Origin: Escherichia phage vB_EcoS_PNS1
Sequence record: NC_073063.1
Length of the DNA: 43,945 bases
Strand: one strand, 5' to 3'
The translations under genes and the position numbers were made by a program. Under the pieces are notes generated by a model. The model was not told the origin of the DNA. It saw only the letters and a list, made by a program, of their open reading frames with translations, and did no database searches. The stretch's first letter is position 1. Each line of letters opens with the position of its first letter. Positions 113-43,945 of the stretch are shown here, one piece after another.

Positions 113-432
113 ACGAAGCGGGACAGGGGTGCTGTCCCGCTTTGTCCCGCCACCATTAAACCGCATATATACTCACTTTTATTGCATAAACTAAAAGCGG
201 GACAGGGGTGCTGTCCCGATCTGTCCCGCCCCTTAAAAGTGAATAGCTATGCGGTTTTTCTGCATAAAACAAACGGGACAAAAAGCGGGACAGAATGAGG
301 CGGGACAAAGCGGGACAGCACCCCTGTCCCCGTCAGTGCTGCCGCGTGTTTTAGCCGGTCGGGACAGGCGGGACAAACCCCAGTCTTTCAGACTAGACGG
401 GGGTCAATGGCCCCCCTCGTCTGAGACTGAAT
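113..432. repeat. GCGGGACA repeat array with three 19-bp palindromes (GGGACAG-N5-CTGTCCC) and a GC-rich terminal hairpin; copy A
   Basis: Palindromes at 120-138, 200-218 and 312-330; at least 8 direct GCGGGACA(R) half-sites; hairpin agacggggg/cccctcgtct at 400-428; 3-prime ~190 bp about 85 percent identical by eye to 27545-27740. Confidence 0.8.
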
Positions 433-497
433 AAGGTTTGTTTTAAATTCGCTGATACAATGACCGACGGCAACTGCATAAAAAGGGGGACTGCATA

Positions 498-3137
498 ATG
501 GCAGATCAGGCAGCGGGCATCACGCTCAAGGCGGACGTCGCGCAAATTAAAACGGCTAATACTGTGCTGGACACATTTGCGCAGAAATCCGAGAACACAG
601 AACAGAAAGTAAAGAAATTAAACGACACACTTGGCAAGTCGAAAAAGGTTACTGGCGACGCTGCTGGCGGAATGGAAAAGTTAGCGACTGAATCGCAGCG
701 CGCCGCCGACGGCATGACGAAACAGGAGCGACTCGCCAGCCGATTAGGCATGTCGACCAAAAACCTGGGATTCGCATCGCGGAACGCCGCATTCCAGTTA
801 CAGGATATCGCGGTAACGCTTGAGATGGGTATGCCGGTGCATCGAGTCATGCTTCAGCAGCTACCGCAGCTTACTGGGGCGTTTGGCGGGTTGGGGAATA
901 CGCTGCGTTATGTCGTCGGCACACTCGGCCCGTTAGGGATCGGCATCGCTGCATTAACGGCAACGATGGGCGTAGGCGTGGCGATTATGTCCCGCGCGGA
1001 AAACCAAGTGGCGGCGCTTAACAAGACGCTGGCGCTGTCCGGTAATATTTCTGGCCTAACAGCTAACCAGATACTGGTGCTATCCGAGAACGCCGAGCGG
1101 ATGGGCGGATCATTCCGCAAGACGCGTGACACAATTCAGTCACTGGCGGCGGCTGGTGTGAAAGCTGGTGCGGACTTCGGCGCACTGGCGAAGGTAGTGA
1201 ATGACTTCTCGAAGGTATCCAGCCAGCCGATCGAAGATGTGGTCGCGGCGGTGGCGAAGCTGTCAACCGACCCGGTAGGAGGCTTGCGCGCACTGGCGGA
1301 TAAGTATCACGTCGTAAACGAAGCGCAGATCCAGCAGGTGCAGTCGTTGGTGGATATGGGCCGCGAGACAGACGCAGTTGCGTTGGCTAACAAAACTGCC
1401 GCCGCGTCGTTCACCACTATGACCAACGATATTAAGGCCAACATGGGCACGCTTGAGCGGTCGATGAACGTCGTCACATCGGCAGCTAAATCCATGTGGG
1501 ATGCCATCCTGGATGTGGGCCGCGCGCAGTCCTCCAATGAGTCCGAGATGAAAGCGCGCGAATCACTACAGCGCATGACCACTGCTTACTATGCCGAGAT
1601 GAAAGCGGTAAACGCTGCCGGTGGGGTAATGACTGAAGCGCAGAAAGCACGTATTAACATGCTTTACAGCGAACTGGTCGCCCAGGAAAAAGTGGTGGCG
1701 TCGCTCACCCTGCGTAACCGTGCCGAGCGAGACAACGCCCGCGCCGCAGACGAATCCGCAAAGGCGAACGAGGAGGCCAACCGCACCGCCCGTGACCGAG
1801 CCGCGTTTGAAAAGGAGTACGCAACTAACGCTAAAAAACGCGCCGACGAGATCGCCCGCCTCAATTTGCTGAATAAGCGCGGCGTTATTGATGAGAAAGA
1901 GCTTGCCGAGGCGGTGAAGCAGGTAAACGAGCGCTACAAAGACCCCGCCCCGAAGAAGGCCGCGGCTGTTCGCGTGGATGCCGGTATGAAAATGCTGGAA
2001 GTCGCGCGGAGCGAACTGGCCCAGCTTCGAGAATCCGGCAAGCAGATCGAAGCCAACGCGTCTACGCAGACCCGCACGCAACGCGCTCAAGCGGCCTTAA
2101 ACAAGCTGATCGCCGACAATGAGCAGTTAATTGCTGCGAGCAAAGAAAGAGCGCTAACGGCAGCCGAAAAGCAGCAGATGGCCGAATTCGGACGCGTGAA
2201 GGAAGTGCGCGAGCAGATCGTCGAAGAAGCTAAATTGCTGGACGCGAAAGAGAAGCAGGTTAAGGCGCACGCGCAGATCGATGCCTTCGTTAAGAACCAG
2301 AACGCTGAACTAAAAGCCACCGCCGCGGGCTATGCGCTTTCCACTCGAGAAGCGGCAAACCTGCGTGAAGAATTGCAGCTAATCGACCGCCTGAAGCGTG
2401 TTGGCGCTAACGATACCGATATTGACAAGGCGGTGTCTAAGTTGCGGGAAGTGCAGGAGGCGCAGACCGGTGCTAACGCCTCGCTATGGGATGGCTTCAG
2501 CCGCGGGCTTAAGGATAGCGTGGATGAAATGGGTAACGGATATACGCAGATGGCGTCGCTCACGAAATTTACATTCAGCGCTATGCAAGACTCGATGAAC
2601 GAGTTTTTCGAGACGGGCAAGATTAACGCGAAGGATATGGTCAAATCCATCCTGAGCGAGTTAATCAAGCTGGCTACCTCGCAGGCGTTCAAGTCCATCG
2701 TTGGCGCTTTCGGTGGTGGCGGCAAAAACGGATTGTTCGGCGCTATCTTCTCTGGCCTCACTAAGAATGCGGACGGAGGAGCGTACGCAGGAGGAAATCT
2801 AGCGGCCTATTCGGGTCAGGTGGTAAGCCAGCCTACCTTTTTCAGTTATGGCGTCCAGGCGTTCGCTAAGGGCGCAGGATTGATGGGTGAGGCTGGACCC
2901 GAGGCCATCATGCCACTGAAGCGCGGGCCGGACGGGAAACTGGGCGTTGCCGCGTCTGGCGCAGGCGGTGGTATGGTCGTGACGACTAACGTTTACACGG
3001 GGGCCGGTAAAACGGATACCAGTGTCAGCGGGCCAGACCCCCGTACCGCGCAGGCGTTCGGCAAGCAAATCACCGAAGCGGTGAAGGCTGAGATCGTGAA
3101 AGCGACGAAACCGGGTGGAGTACTGTACAAACGATGA
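498..3137 (+). CDS. tail tape measure protein
   Basis: 879 aa, Ala/Gln/Lys-rich helical protein with Gly-rich C-terminus; sits between chaperone G/G-T and distal tail genes; RBS aaggggg before ATG. Confidence 0.9.
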   Translation: MADQAAGITLKADVAQIKTANTVLDTFAQKSENTEQKVKKLNDTLGKSKKVTGDAAGGMEKLATESQRAADGMTKQERLASRLGMSTKNLGFASRNAAFQLQDIAVTLEMGMPVHRVMLQQLPQLTGAFGGLGNTLRYVVGTLGPLGIGIAALTATMGVGVAIMSRAENQVAALNKTLALSGNISGLTANQILVLSENAERMGGSFRKTRDTIQSLAAAGVKAGADFGALAKVVNDFSKVSSQPIEDVVAAVAKLSTDPVGGLRALADKYHVVNEAQIQQVQSLVDMGRETDAVALANKTAAASFTTMTNDIKANMGTLERSMNVVTSAAKSMWDAILDVGRAQSSNESEMKARESLQRMTTAYYAEMKAVNAAGGVMTEAQKARINMLYSELVAQEKVVASLTLRNRAERDNARAADESAKANEEANRTARDRAAFEKEYATNAKKRADEIARLNLLNKRGVIDEKELAEAVKQVNERYKDPAPKKAAAVRVDAGMKMLEVARSELAQLRESGKQIEANASTQTRTQRAQAALNKLIADNEQLIAASKERALTAAEKQQMAEFGRVKEVREQIVEEAKLLDAKEKQVKAHAQIDAFVKNQNAELKATAAGYALSTREAANLREELQLIDRLKRVGANDTDIDKAVSKLREVQEAQTGANASLWDGFSRGLKDSVDEMGNGYTQMASLTKFTFSAMQDSMNEFFETGKINAKDMVKSILSELIKLATSQAFKSIVGAFGGGGKNGLFGAIFSGLTKNADGGAYAGGNLAAYSGQVVSQPTFFSYGVQAFAKGAGLMGEAGPEAIMPLKRGPDGKLGVAASGAGGGMVVTTNVYTGAGKTDTSVSGPDPRTAQAFGKQITEAVKAEIVKATKPGGVLYKR

Positions 3138-10078: not shown

Positions 10079-11581
10079 ATGGCAGCGGGTACGCTCTCTG
10101 TAACGAATAACAGCAAGGCGGTTGTCGGGGTAGGCACGGCGTTTACCTCGTTTACAGCTGGCGACTTCTTAACGCTGGTGGTGGGGCAAGTGCCCTACAC
10201 TGTTGCGATCGCGTCCGTCGAAAGCGACACCGCGCTTACGCTTGTGCTGCCGTTCGACGGCCCAACGGCAACGGGACTCGCCTGGGACGGCATCAAACGT
10301 GACACCATGTCACTTGCAACGATGGGCGTGACCGTCCAGGCGCAGAAAGCGCTACGCTTGATGATGGCGGATGAAAACAACTGGCGTGCAATCTTCGGCG
10401 ACGCTGAAGAAATCACCGTTACGCTGCCCAGCGGGCAAGTTATGCAGGGTATGTCATGGGGCTACCTGTCATCCTTGCTGAAGGACGTTGACCCCGTTGA
10501 GATGCGCAACCTGCAACAACAAGCCACCGCATCTGAAGCCGCAGCGCAGGGATTTCGCGATCAGGCCGAGGAGTGGGCGAAAAGCGTAAATGCGGATAAT
10601 CTGCTAACAAAATCCGGCAACCTGGCGGGCCTGGCTGACCAATCGGCGGCACGCGTCAATCTCGGTCTTGACCGCCTCGAGCAGTCTACATATGACACTA
10701 GACTTTTTGACGCTTCAGGCGGCTATTACTTCTTTATTGCAGATTCTGATTGGGGGTGTGTCCATAATACTGCCCCGGATTATCCACGCATTGCGTTACC
10801 AGTAGCCAGTGGTGGAACTGGGGGAACAACAGAGTATTCAGCGTGTCAAAATCTACGTGCGCTCAACTGTGCCTATGATATCAACACAAATTACGGTTCT
10901 GAACAATTGTATACAGGTATCGGATTTTACGGCCGAGATGTGTCACCGCAGCCTGGGGGTGACGGCGGGCCTTTCGGCTGGGCCGAGATTATGACAATTG
11001 CGGAGGGGGGTGGTGGCCCTGGATCGGTGGGTAACTGGTCACAGATCGGTTTTTCCACTGCCGCCTCACAGGCCCCGCGCTACCGTCAACGCATAGCCAA
11101 CCCGGGGCAGGTTACTAACTGGCGGGATTTCTTAATTCGTGACCTAAACACCACTGTTGACAGCAACGGTTTTATTAAAATCGCATCCCCTATTGTGAAA
11201 ATCAAAGGTGACGGGACCGCAGAGTTTAACGACGAGTCCGAAGGTTGCTCTGTAACACGGGTGTCCAAAGGTGTTTATGTAATATCGGGTTGTCTGGGCC
11301 TCAATTCCGACGCGTCATGGGGCGGGGTCAATGGCGGCTTTGAGATACCGGTAGATGTAAACAAGCAACCTTTGTTGTGGCTGGATTATGAAGTATTGGA
11401 TGAGGGAAGTATTGAGATTCGCACCTACCACCGCACGCATACTAACGCGCCTAAGTTCGCGAGAAATATTATTGACGGTATCGAAGACGGCGATCCGATA
11501 GATATCCCACCAAGCACCTACATCTCTGTTAGGGTGCAAATGCCCACAACAGGATTGGAAACAGCCACGAGTAGTGCGTAG
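10079..11581 (+). CDS. tail fiber protein
   Basis: 500 aa Gly/Ser/Thr-rich protein downstream of J module; RBS agagga. Confidence 0.7.
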   Translation: MAAGTLSVTNNSKAVVGVGTAFTSFTAGDFLTLVVGQVPYTVAIASVESDTALTLVLPFDGPTATGLAWDGIKRDTMSLATMGVTVQAQKALRLMMADENNWRAIFGDAEEITVTLPSGQVMQGMSWGYLSSLLKDVDPVEMRNLQQQATASEAAAQGFRDQAEEWAKSVNADNLLTKSGNLAGLADQSAARVNLGLDRLEQSTYDTRLFDASGGYYFFIADSDWGCVHNTAPDYPRIALPVASGGTGGTTEYSACQNLRALNCAYDINTNYGSEQLYTGIGFYGRDVSPQPGGDGGPFGWAEIMTIAEGGGGPGSVGNWSQIGFSTAASQAPRYRQRIANPGQVTNWRDFLIRDLNTTVDSNGFIKIASPIVKIKGDGTAEFNDESEGCSVTRVSKGVYVISGCLGLNSDASWGGVNGGFEIPVDVNKQPLLWLDYEVLDEGSIEIRTYHRTHTNAPKFARNIIDGIEDGDPIDIPPSTYISVRVQMPTTGLETATSSA

Positions 11582-27500: not shown

Positions 27501-27544
27501 TGTTTTTATCCGGTCGTATTGGTTGCCGTGTAGTGTAAATATAA

Positions 27545-27740
27545 TGAATAGTTATGCAGTTTTATTGCATAAAGTAAGCGGGACAGAAAGCGGGACAAAC
27601 AAGGGGCGGGACAAAGCGGGACAGCACCCCTGTCCCGCCCCGGATGACGCGGCCTGGCGAGGAGCGGGACAGGCGGGACAAACCCCAGTCTTTCAGACTA
27701 GACGGGGGGTCTGTCACCCCCCTCGTCTGAGACTGCATAA
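27545..27740. repeat. GCGGGACA repeat array with palindrome GGGACAGCACCCCTGTCCC and terminal hairpin; copy B
   Basis: About 190 bp, about 85 percent identical by eye to the 3-prime part of 113-432; palindrome at 27618-27636. Confidence 0.8.
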
Positions 27741-42459: not shown

Positions 42460-43185
42460 ATGGGTTATCAACTTCCTAACGGGTCCAGCGTCCAGATCGG
42501 GTCCGTACTAGGCAATGGTATCGCGGTTACGGCAGCTACCAACGCCGCTGCGTCGATCTCCGACCTTACGCAAGGTTGCGTAATTACCTGCGCGGAGTCT
42601 CACGGTCTGGTTGTTGGCGACGTTGTTATGTTCACTAAAACCCCGTGGGTCCGTGCGCTGAACCGCGCGTTCATCGTGGGTAAAGTGTCAGGGAACGACG
42701 TGACGCTGGCGCGCTTCGATACTCAAGACGCCACCAAATACCCGACCGGTGCTTTCGGCGTAGGCACACCGGGTGAGGTCGTGAAGGTGTCGAGCTTTAT
42801 CGACTTCCCGTTTATCACTAACGTTGCCGTGTCGGGTGGCGACCAGCAGACCACCACCTTCCAGCCGTTGCAGGTGAATACCGCGATCAGTCTGAACACC
42901 ACGAAAAACCCGTTGGTCCAGACCTACACTTTCACCCACGACGAAGAAGACCCGATCCGCCCGATTCTGGAAGACCTGGACGACACACAGAAAACCACTG
43001 TGATTAAGTTCACTAACCCGGCAGCGGCAAGCGGCAAAGGTGAAATCCGCATTTACCCGGCTAAGGTGTCTTTCCGCAAGATTCCGTCGGCTGAAGTAAA
43101 CAACGTGGAGACGGTGGAGTCCACCCTCACTATGCAGTCCGATATGGTTATTTACCGTAAGGACTTGGTCGAGGCGCTGTCGTAA
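42460..43185 (+). CDS. major tail protein
   Basis: 241 aa, AGGAG RBS, followed by a terminator and then the G/G-T chaperone genes. Confidence 0.75.
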   Translation: MGYQLPNGSSVQIGSVLGNGIAVTAATNAAASISDLTQGCVITCAESHGLVVGDVVMFTKTPWVRALNRAFIVGKVSGNDVTLARFDTQDATKYPTGAFGVGTPGEVVKVSSFIDFPFITNVAVSGGDQQTTTFQPLQVNTAISLNTTKNPLVQTYTFTHDEEDPIRPILEDLDDTQKTTVIKFTNPAAASGKGEIRIYPAKVSFRKIPSAEVNNVETVESTLTMQSDMVIYRKDLVEALS

Positions 43186-43215: not shown

Positions 43216-43239
43216 GGGGCCAGTACGGCCCCTTTTTTA
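43216..43239 (+). terminator. rho-independent terminator after major tail gene
   Basis: Stem ggggcc/ggcccc with loop gtac followed by tttttt. Confidence 0.6.
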
Positions 43240-43254
43240 TTGGAGAATTATATA

Positions 43255-43617
43255 ATGGCTAAATCACCACTCTTCACACTTGACCCTAAACCGACCTTTA
43301 AGCTGCCGATTGAGATCCCGCGCCCTGGTGAGAACGAACCGGGCAAAATGACGTTTACCGTGCGCCACCGCCCTATCGACGAATTTTCGCAGACCATGCA
43401 GGACACTGAGCGCAAATTGTCGGAGTATGACGACAATGACCCGGAAGGATTTAACGTTATGGTCGAGGCCATCATGCACGTCGCTGAAGGCTGGAATTTG
43501 CCGGACGAATTTAATGCTGCCAACGTCCGCCGCCTGGTAGTCAACTACCCGCGCGCGTTCGGCGTGTTCCATACGTCGTACTACCTCGAATTGATGGGGT
43601 TGCGTGAAAAAAACTAA
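43255..43617 (+). CDS. tail assembly chaperone (gpG-like)
   Basis: 120 aa from ATG 43255 (GGAGA RBS); ends just after slippery heptamer A AAA AAC. Confidence 0.7.
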   Translation: MAKSPLFTLDPKPTFKLPIEIPRPGENEPGKMTFTVRHRPIDEFSQTMQDTERKLSEYDDNDPEGFNVMVEAIMHVAEGWNLPDEFNAANVRRLVVNYPRAFGVFHTSYYLELMGLREKN

Positions 43618-43931
43618 TTGAGGCGGCGCGGCGATTTTATGGCCCGCCGCCACCCTCCGAAGATTTAGCCGCGAGTTTATGGGGTGCGACACCGGAAGAC
43701 GTGTGTCCACCCGTTGCGCTGTGGCCAGACAATGCGAAGGTAGTCGCAGTCTTCACCGATTGCTCCACGCAATGGCGTACCGGATTTGGCGGGGCATACG
43801 GCATAGACTACGGCGTACTGGAATGGTTATTTAAGATGCACGGCATCGAAAACGCGCAACGCGCATTTAAAGATATCAAGCTAATGGAACGCGTTGCGCT
43901 GGATGAAATGGCGCGGCAGAACCCCGCATAA
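43255..43931 (+). CDS. tail assembly chaperone G-T fusion (by -1 frameshift at 43608-43614)
   Basis: Frame 43611..43931 has no stop and joins ORF 43701..43931; conserved G/GT arrangement upstream of tape measure. Confidence 0.55.
43608..43614 (+). other. programmed -1 ribosomal frameshift site (slippery heptamer AAAAAAC)
   Basis: Heptamer 7 nt before the G stop codon; the -1 frame stays open from 43611 to the TAA at 43929-43931. Confidence 0.6.
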
Positions 43932-43945
43932 CGAAGCGGGACAGG

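Follow-up and report, generated by a model that had tools for sequence, protein, structure and literature searches.

At the end of a tail gene of Escherichia phage vB_EcoS_PNS1 (sequence record NC_073063.1), a stop codon directly follows a slippery run of adenines, and from that point a second open reading frame, displaced by −1, extends further downstream. The question raised by this arrangement is whether ribosomes pass from the first frame into the second, producing a G-T chaperone fusion, or whether the downstream frame is expressed in some other way or not expressed at all. A conserved −1 frameshift in the G/GT tail assembly chaperones of long-tailed phages was reportedly described by Xu, Hendrix and Duda in 2004; it is by now a textbook mechanism, expected in almost all long-tailed phages, and no new principle is at stake, the main practical value of the present case being one of annotation. 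We have analysed the whole stretch of 43,945 nucleotides, hereafter the window, in which all features lie on the + strand unless otherwise stated. The original prediction of a −1 frameshift that yields a G-T chaperone fusion is supported, since all the elements of a lambda-type G/GT site that can be tested on the sequence (synteny, domains, purifying selection on the −1 frame and a conserved slip site) are present. We thus regard the locus as very probably the tail assembly chaperone G/GT −1 recoding site of a Dhillonvirus, at which a fusion protein would be produced.

Identity and setting of the two reading frames

Gene G (43255–43617) starts at the ATG at 43255, nine nucleotides downstream of what reads as a Shine-Dalgarno sequence (GGAG, 43242–43245), and encodes a tail assembly (tape measure) chaperone of 120 amino acids whose sequence ends in LREKN. 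The product matches the Pfam family Phage_TAC_4 (PF08748) over its full length, with residues 1–120 on profile positions 1–124 of 124 and a score well above the gathering cutoff (E = 2.2e-23, 83.3 bits against 21.1), and a search of PDB sequences with G returned 0 matches. The gene is annotated as a CDS in HK578, Kenya-K19 and other phages, and among the 22 distinct Dhillonvirus sequences that were aligned for the selection analysis, which are about 88–98% identical, its variable sites are distributed as 11/7/84 over codon positions 1/2/3 of the zero frame. An antisense open reading frame of 148 amino acids (43264–43710) was considered and rejected as a shadow of G, the substitution patterns being those of the plus-strand frames.

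The T extension (43614–43931, base 43614 being read twice) comprises 105 codons (LIEAARRFYGPPPP...ARQNPA) followed by a TAA at 43929–43931, so that the conceptual GT fusion amounts to 120 + 105 = 225 amino acids. As originally predicted, the −1 frame is open for 107 codons up to this TAA, from 43608 to 43928. The extension also has a full-length Pfam match above the gathering score, to DUF1799 (PF08809; E = 2.8e-21, 76 bits, cutoff 26), with residues 23–99 on profile positions 1–80 of 80, and it matches phrog_680 with E = 3e-31. Further, phrog_17368 matches the conceptual 225-residue fusion as a single collinear stretch that spans the junction, residues 1–223 aligning on profile positions 1–212 of 213 (E = 7.7e-31). 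DUF1799 may be taken as the T domain of the Phage_TAC_4 chaperone family; the literature on DUF1799 yielded one phage paper, on an unrelated subject, and the PDB sequence search with T gave a single match of no use (E = 0.3).

G-T and the sequence on either side of it have matches of 80–99% identity in 157 phage records, nearly all of them from Escherichia phages of the genus Dhillonvirus (for example HK578, YD-2008.s and Kenya-K19), and the window is an HK578-like Dhillonvirus genome, that of a long-tailed E. coli siphophage. Bases 1–127 are an exact copy of 43819–43945, an assembly or terminal overlap, which means that the contig is circular or terminally overlapping and has a unique length of 43,818 bp. 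The earlier view that the window boundary falls inside the extension, making the first 112 bases coding, must therefore be amended: the opening bases do hold extension sequence (bases 1–110, with the TAA at 111–113, repeat its 3′ end), but as a redundant duplicate rather than as a continuation, and at its 3′ end the window contains the whole of the T extension.

Upstream of G lies the gene of the major tail (tube) protein (42460–43185, 241 amino acids), as inferred from matches to Pfam Phage_tail_3 (E = 1.3e-32) and to the major tail protein family phrog_584 (E = 9e-74). The downstream marker, across the circular junction, is the tape measure protein gene (498–3137 in the list of open reading frames, 879 amino acids; Pfam TMP_2, E = 3.7e-44), whose counterpart carries a tape measure annotation in HK578 and Kenya-K19. 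The order is thus tube gene, G, T in the −1 frame and tape measure gene, and the G/GT pair occupies the place between major tail and tape measure genes that is typical of the conserved chaperone frameshift. Between T and the tape measure gene there are 385 nt of repeat-rich intergenic sequence, and a search of bases 1–520 against Rfam evidenced nothing beyond sub-threshold noise from miRNA hairpins.

The slip site and the coding status of the −1 frame

The sequence 43605–43617 reads TGA AAA AAA C TAA, and in the frame of G the gene ends as CGT GAA AAA AAC TAA. The slippery heptamer A_AAA_AAC, of the X_XXY_YYZ type, occupies 43608–43614 in the register of G, and its last base adjoins the zero-frame stop TAA (43615–43617); the original placing of the heptamer 7 nt before the stop is accurate if the distance is counted from its first base. 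Directly 5′ of the heptamer a TGA (43605–43607) closes the −1 frame, with the result that the two frames overlap over 10 nt only (43608–43617), a space filled by the heptamer. A slippery sequence in the zero-frame register is thus found inside the overlap, and together with the abutting stop and a downstream hairpin (see below) it fits within about 45 nt. Readthrough of the stop codon was discarded, as the zero frame ends at a TAG 15 codons past the TAA without coming into the frame of T.

It could be argued that such a heptamer is coincidental and that the frame downstream is an unexpressed, decaying remnant, and in agreement the bare string AAAAAAC occurs in the window no more often than expected (7 copies for an expectation of 8.2). 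However, among the 13,011 codon positions that the window's long open reading frames offer, 23 hold an in-frame X_XXY_YYZ heptamer (around 0.18%), and given that a 10-nt overlap admits a single register, the probability of a chance placement is about 0.002, even leaving the conservation evidence aside. The presence of a significant Pfam domain in the −1 frame also speaks against a remnant, as do the substitution patterns. Across the T extension the variable sites among the 22 distinct Dhillonvirus sequences distribute as 23/10/72 over the codon positions of the −1 frame, a strong third-position bias, and codon differences are synonymous and non-synonymous in a proportion of 480:96 in this frame, compared with 43:547 and 81:513 in the other two. 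No new stop codon has arisen in the −1 frame in any of 21 relatives. Coding conservation of the downstream frame was among the points named with the original prediction, and this is what we observe: as judged from these patterns, the T extension is under purifying selection as −1-frame coding sequence, from the slip site on.

The statement that selection acts from the slip site on is of relevance for a further alternative, namely that T is a separate gene with its own initiation, at GTG 43701 or at ATT 43617, and that no fusion is made. Both starts have been used in annotation, the former in Kenya-K19 and EC115 and the latter for gp16 of HK578, and the GTG does exist in the window. Nevertheless, ATG, GTG and TTG are all missing from the −1 frame between 43608 and 43700, and GTG 43701, the first possible start, is present in only 5 of the 22 distinct Dhillonvirus sequences, the remaining 17 having GTT or ATT. 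The region upstream of this only possible start behaves as coding sequence in its own right, with variable sites distributed as 6/1/16 in the −1 frame for 43617–43700 alone, and synonymous to non-synonymous differences of 109:20 for 43614–43700, against 17:112 and 2:128 in the other frames. In distant homologues, too, the alignment takes in the 29 codons 5′ of the GTG, starting at residue 1, and the DUF1799 match, which opens at residue 23 of the extension, begins seven residues upstream of it. In respect to ATT 43617, this is not a normal start codon, lacks a Shine-Dalgarno sequence and is replaced by AAA, ATC or AGG in homologues; likewise, the head of the −1 peptide carries no start codon in the homologues from T1-like, Ralstonia and Stenotrophomonas phages. 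The rarity of the GTG, the early DUF1799 match, and the selection and alignment upstream of the GTG indicate that independent initiation of T is not credible, and we consider it very improbable. What overlaps the end of G is therefore a second open reading frame in −1, without a conserved start or ribosome binding site of its own.

The comparison with other phages places the strongest constraint precisely at the slip site. All 22 other Dhillonvirus loci that we examined carry TGAAAAAAACTAA unchanged, and 43603–43619 is the sole invariant run of at least 12 nt in G-T among the 22 distinct Dhillonvirus sequences, which makes it the most conserved stretch of the locus. A tblastn search with the T extension retrieved 1,152 phage records, many of them only 30–41% identical and yet aligned from residue 1, and in every homologue compared the conserved −1 peptide (L-x-x-A...) begins at the slip. 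In T1-like Drexlerviridae the end of G reads GTA AAA AAC TAA (tonijn, JakobBernoulli and BEK2 from GenBank, as well as 32 IMG/VR loci), in Ralstonia and Stenotrophomonas phages it reads G_GGA_AAC TGA, and Scapp and a Webervirus have sites of the A_AAG or A_AAA_G type one codon 5′ of the stop. The arrangement and a slip site are thus kept despite the divergence of T to 30–41% identity. Conservation of the −1 frame across phage families, and of the slip site above all else in the locus, adds to the domain and selection data, by which the reading as coincidence or remnant is, on sequence grounds, effectively refuted; we give it practically no weight. In four groups of homologues (Dhillonvirus, T1-like, Ralstonia-phage and Stenotrophomonas-phage) a stop, TAA or TGA, stands directly 3′ of the heptamer, and its recurrence in four divergent clades suggests a contribution of the ‘shifty stop’ kind.

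An A-rich site might also act at the level of transcription, with RNA polymerase adding one A on the A7 run (43607–43613) in some transcripts, which would lead to a junction reading REKK-LIEAARR. One extra A gives exactly the frame of T, and the A7 at the site, as well as the A6 of the T1-like homologues, would be the substrate. Productive slippage by the E. coli RNA polymerase usually takes runs of about 8–9 or more. Recoding by transcriptional slippage on homopolymer runs is well established (PMC5009743); however, the G_GGA_AAC of the Ralstonia and Stenotrophomonas phages is a classical ribosomal heptamer without any homopolymer run, from which it follows that the conserved trait is the in-frame X_XXY_YYZ pattern and not a run of A. 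In addition, a stop abutting the heptamer and a hairpin 7 nt downstream suit a ribosome rather than an RNA polymerase. Transcriptional slippage is therefore an improbable source of the fusion, if somewhat less so than a separate start for T, and ribosomal frameshifting remains the preferred explanation.

Precedents for a fusion in related phages were found in the literature and in sequence records. A frameshift was reported or proposed in the T1-like phages Stevie and Rogue1 (PMC4319613, PMC3496638), the proposal for Rogue1 being a G-T-type fusion (PMC3496638), and in Serratia phage Scapp (NC_070875.1) a joined CDS is noted as ‘Tape Measure Chaperone Frameshift Product’. Literature searches on Dhillonvirus together with frameshift, and on HK578, found nothing specific.

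Candidate stimulators and the proposed shift

A GC-rich hairpin (43622–43651) starts 7 nt after the heptamer and is a candidate stimulator of the shift. It has arms of 7 bp (GGCGGCG, 43622–43628; CGCCGCC, 43645–43651) and a free energy of −22.5 kcal/mol, corresponding to z = −3.1 in respect to shuffled sequences. No variation is seen in the arms among Dhillonvirus: of the third-codon positions, 0 of 5 vary within the arms, whereas in the rest of the extension the count is 72 of 98 (Fisher p = 0.002). We have compared the stem more broadly on an ungapped alignment of 57 columns and 39 distinct sequences, and a stem on the same pairs of columns recurs in 28 of 32 T1-like loci, two pairs switching from C-G/G-C in Dhillonvirus to U-A in the T1-like phages. 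Pairing is observed in 79.8% of the cells against 36–53% in slid controls, one of which equals the covariation score. The double changes separate whole clades and thus represent few independent events, the stem being invariant within Dhillonvirus, and they change the encoded residues as well (Ala-Ala...Pro-Pro versus Ala-Val...Lys-Pro); the stem is missing in 4 of the 32 T1-like loci, in BEK2, in Scapp and in the Stenotrophomonas phage. Altogether the pairing data lend modest support to a conserved stem, short of proof, and the hairpin is probably a frameshift stimulator.

Other candidate elements did not withstand comparison. No conserved Shine-Dalgarno-like stimulator was found around 10 nt 5′ of the heptamer, and the one G-run nearby, GGGG at 43596–43599, was rejected as such an element, as the third base of its Gly codon (43599) varies among Dhillonvirus. 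A pseudoknot of the sort proposed for Rogue1 (PMC3496638) was likewise rejected: complementarity between the loop and downstream sequence amounts, by eye, to only 4–5 nt and is lost in most Dhillonvirus, whose loop reads CGACGC.

According to the mechanism that we propose, most ribosomes would terminate at the TAA at 43615–43617 and release the 120-residue chaperone G, while a minority would slip back by one nucleotide on A_AAA_AAC (43608–43614). The slip might be a tandem one, with tRNA-Lys and tRNA-Asn moving from AAA AAC to AAA AAA, or it might involve the P-site tRNA-Asn alone, while the A site holds the stop codon. In either case the next codon would be CTA (43614–43616), and a total of 105 codons would be translated in the −1 frame before the TAA at 43929–43931 is reached, giving a GT fusion of 225 amino acids with the junction REKN-LIEAARR. 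We infer that the shift is probably set to a low, fixed ratio by the TAA that adjoins the heptamer and by the GC-rich hairpin that begins 7 nt after it. By analogy with lambda, both products would coat the tape measure protein through their G part, GT would recruit the tail tube protein through its T part (DUF1799), and neither G nor GT would be found in the virion.

In E. coli, A_AAA_AAC is reportedly much less prone to shift than A_AAA_AAG (PMC5009743), and as a consequence the shift may be inefficient here, or may rely on help from the stop codon and the hairpin. A bolder reading, which we put forward tentatively and hold to be rather doubtful, is that the signal of the Phage_TAC_4/DUF1799 family is a compact cassette of three parts, namely a heptamer ending in AAC, which is a weak shifter in E. 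coli, an abutting stop and, some 7 nt further on, a GC-rich hairpin; stop and hairpin would then be required to lift a poor slip site to the G:GT ratio needed, and the shift may be a slippage of P-site tRNA-Asn with the stop in the A site rather than a tandem one. If true, the mechanism would be unlike that of lambda, whose heptamer is located 15 nt before the stop. The compactness of the arrangement would also make it a convenient natural test case of how stop-codon context and a downstream stem tune the weak A_AAA_AAC in E. coli. Chaperones of the Phage_TAC_4/DUF1799 type are common to Dhillonvirus, T1-like Drexlerviridae and some phages of Burkholderiales and Xanthomonadales.

Relation to known systems and to current annotation

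The G/GT system of lambda shifts by −1 at G_GGA_AAG (Levin 1993 and Xu 2004/2013/2014, as summarised in PMC5009743) with a G:GT ratio of 30:1 (PMC5009743), and of its products G binds the tape measure protein and T the tube protein, both being absent from virions (PMC5009743). The locus under study resembles it in the order of tube gene, G, T in the −1 frame and tape measure gene, in the X_XXY_YYZ heptamer that lies in frame close to the 3′ terminus of G, in the fact that T has no start of its own, and in size, lambda G and T having 140 and about 144 amino acids against 120 and 105 here. On the other hand, homology to lambda G and T was not detected by BLASTP (E = 7 and 0.23), and the Pfam families are different, Phage_TAC_2 and Phage_tail_T in lambda as opposed to Phage_TAC_4 and DUF1799. 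The sites differ as well, since in place of lambda's 15-nt spacing the heptamer here abuts the stop, has a −1-frame TGA directly 5′ of it and is followed at 7 nt by a hairpin that is probably conserved; moreover, lambda T overlaps H, whereas here T and the tape measure gene are separated by 385 nt. As far as sequence comparison tells, the locus operates in the manner of lambda G/GT, whereas by homology it belongs with the T1-like chaperones and not with those of lambda.

The true homologues are indeed those of T1-like Drexlerviridae (Stevie, Rogue1, tonijn, JakobBernoulli and BEK2), in which T is 30–38% identical from the first residue. The slip cassette, A_AAA_AAC followed by TAA, is identical in the two groups, and in most of the T1-like phages a hairpin is found in the same alignment columns, 6–7 nt downstream. 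The site differs in some details: theirs is an A6 preceded by GT, while here an A7 is preceded by G; their −1 frame is open for 40–170 nt upstream, while here it is closed right at the site; and the inner pairs of their stem are U-A instead of C-G/G-C. Scapp has a homologue in the same position, with T 37% identical and a frameshift CDS annotated in two pieces, but its site, GAA AAG TAT TAA, is of the A_AAG type (single-tRNA slip), lies one codon ahead of the stop and has no hairpin like the one described here.

A parallel can also be drawn with E. coli dnaX (A_AAA_AAG), which shares with this locus an A-rich lysine heptamer read by E. coli ribosomes and a short spacer followed by a stable stem-loop, a candidate one in the present case, the 7-nt spacing of which falls within the roughly 5–9 nt of the dnaX type. 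Contrary to dnaX, the final codon here is AAC (Asn) and not AAG, and no conserved Shine-Dalgarno-like element is present upstream. The dnaX frameshift shortens its product, and the one described here lengthens it.

A joined G-T CDS is annotated in 0 of the 10 Dhillonvirus GenBank/RefSeq records inspected, an absence that stems from the way such genes are annotated and does not speak against the shift. In the same 10 records T is truncated (to the GTG), begun at the non-start codon ATT (HK578), split into fragments in wrong frames, or omitted altogether, and G is frequently mislabelled as ‘tail length tape measure protein’.

Hairpins flanking the G-T genes

Directly 3' of the T stop codon, whose second copy in the window lies at 111-113, a hairpin with 14-bp arms (ACGAAGCGGGACAG / CTGTCCCGCTTTGT) occupies window positions 113-145, and the annotation of phage HK578 places a rho-independent terminator at the corresponding site. 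By implication, expression of the tape measure gene (498-3137, plus strand) would depend either on readthrough past the 113-145 hairpin or on a promoter of its own, an arrangement that differs from that of lambda, in which T overlaps H. A further terminator-like hairpin, GGGGCC AGTAC GGCCCC followed by TTTTTT, is found at 43216-43232, between the end of the tube gene (major tail protein) at 43185 and the start of G at 43255, and could lower the expression of the chaperone relative to that of the tube protein.

The CGGGACA repeat module

T and the tape measure gene are separated by an unusually long intergenic stretch of 385 nt (window 113-497), which contains 12 copies of the heptamer CGGGACA, in both orientations. 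Within it we observed a module of about 195 nt, extending roughly from 238 to 434, in which TGCATAAA is followed by six to seven CGGGACA copies and then by a long hairpin, CAGTCTTTCAGACTAGACGGGGG...CCCCCTCGTCTGAGACTG. A second copy of this module, about 85% identical, is present at 27541-27737, downstream of a gene encoding a 754-residue protein with an AAA_25 domain. Over the whole window the heptamer occurs 26 times against 6.3 expected, 19 of these occurrences lying in the two module-bearing clusters (113-497 and 27541-27737). A comparison with Rfam matched no family; the module looks like a putative binding-site array for a regulator, or else a promoter module.

Ends of the window

Sequence comparison evidenced that the last 127 bases of the window (43819-43945) are repeated exactly at 1-127, a repeat which is either a circular-assembly overlap or a terminal redundancy. 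The unique genome thus amounts to 43,818 bp, with the break of the contig lying within the T extension.

Annotation and apparent slip-site variants in related phages

The annotation of G-T is inconsistent between public Dhillonvirus records. In HK578 (L001, NC_019724.1) gp16, at 10795-11109, is annotated with an ATT start whose first base is the final one of the G stop codon; in other records of the genus T is given a GTG start, is broken up into small wrong-frame ORFs or is left out; also, both G and T carry the label 'tail length tape measure protein' in RefSeq and PHROG. For phage vB_EcoS_L-h 1M (L031, NC_073086.1) the CDS coordinates appear to be displaced by about 726 nt from the actual G-T match, which as a result lands under 'major tail protein', and this record also has N residues within and near the slip site. 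In two T1-like contigs from IMG/VR (L064 and L065) the slip-site run is one A shorter (GTAAAAACTAA, around locus position 490), so that G continues in the third frame and T is found in the +1 frame instead of −1; a homopolymer error in sequencing is the most likely explanation of the missing A.
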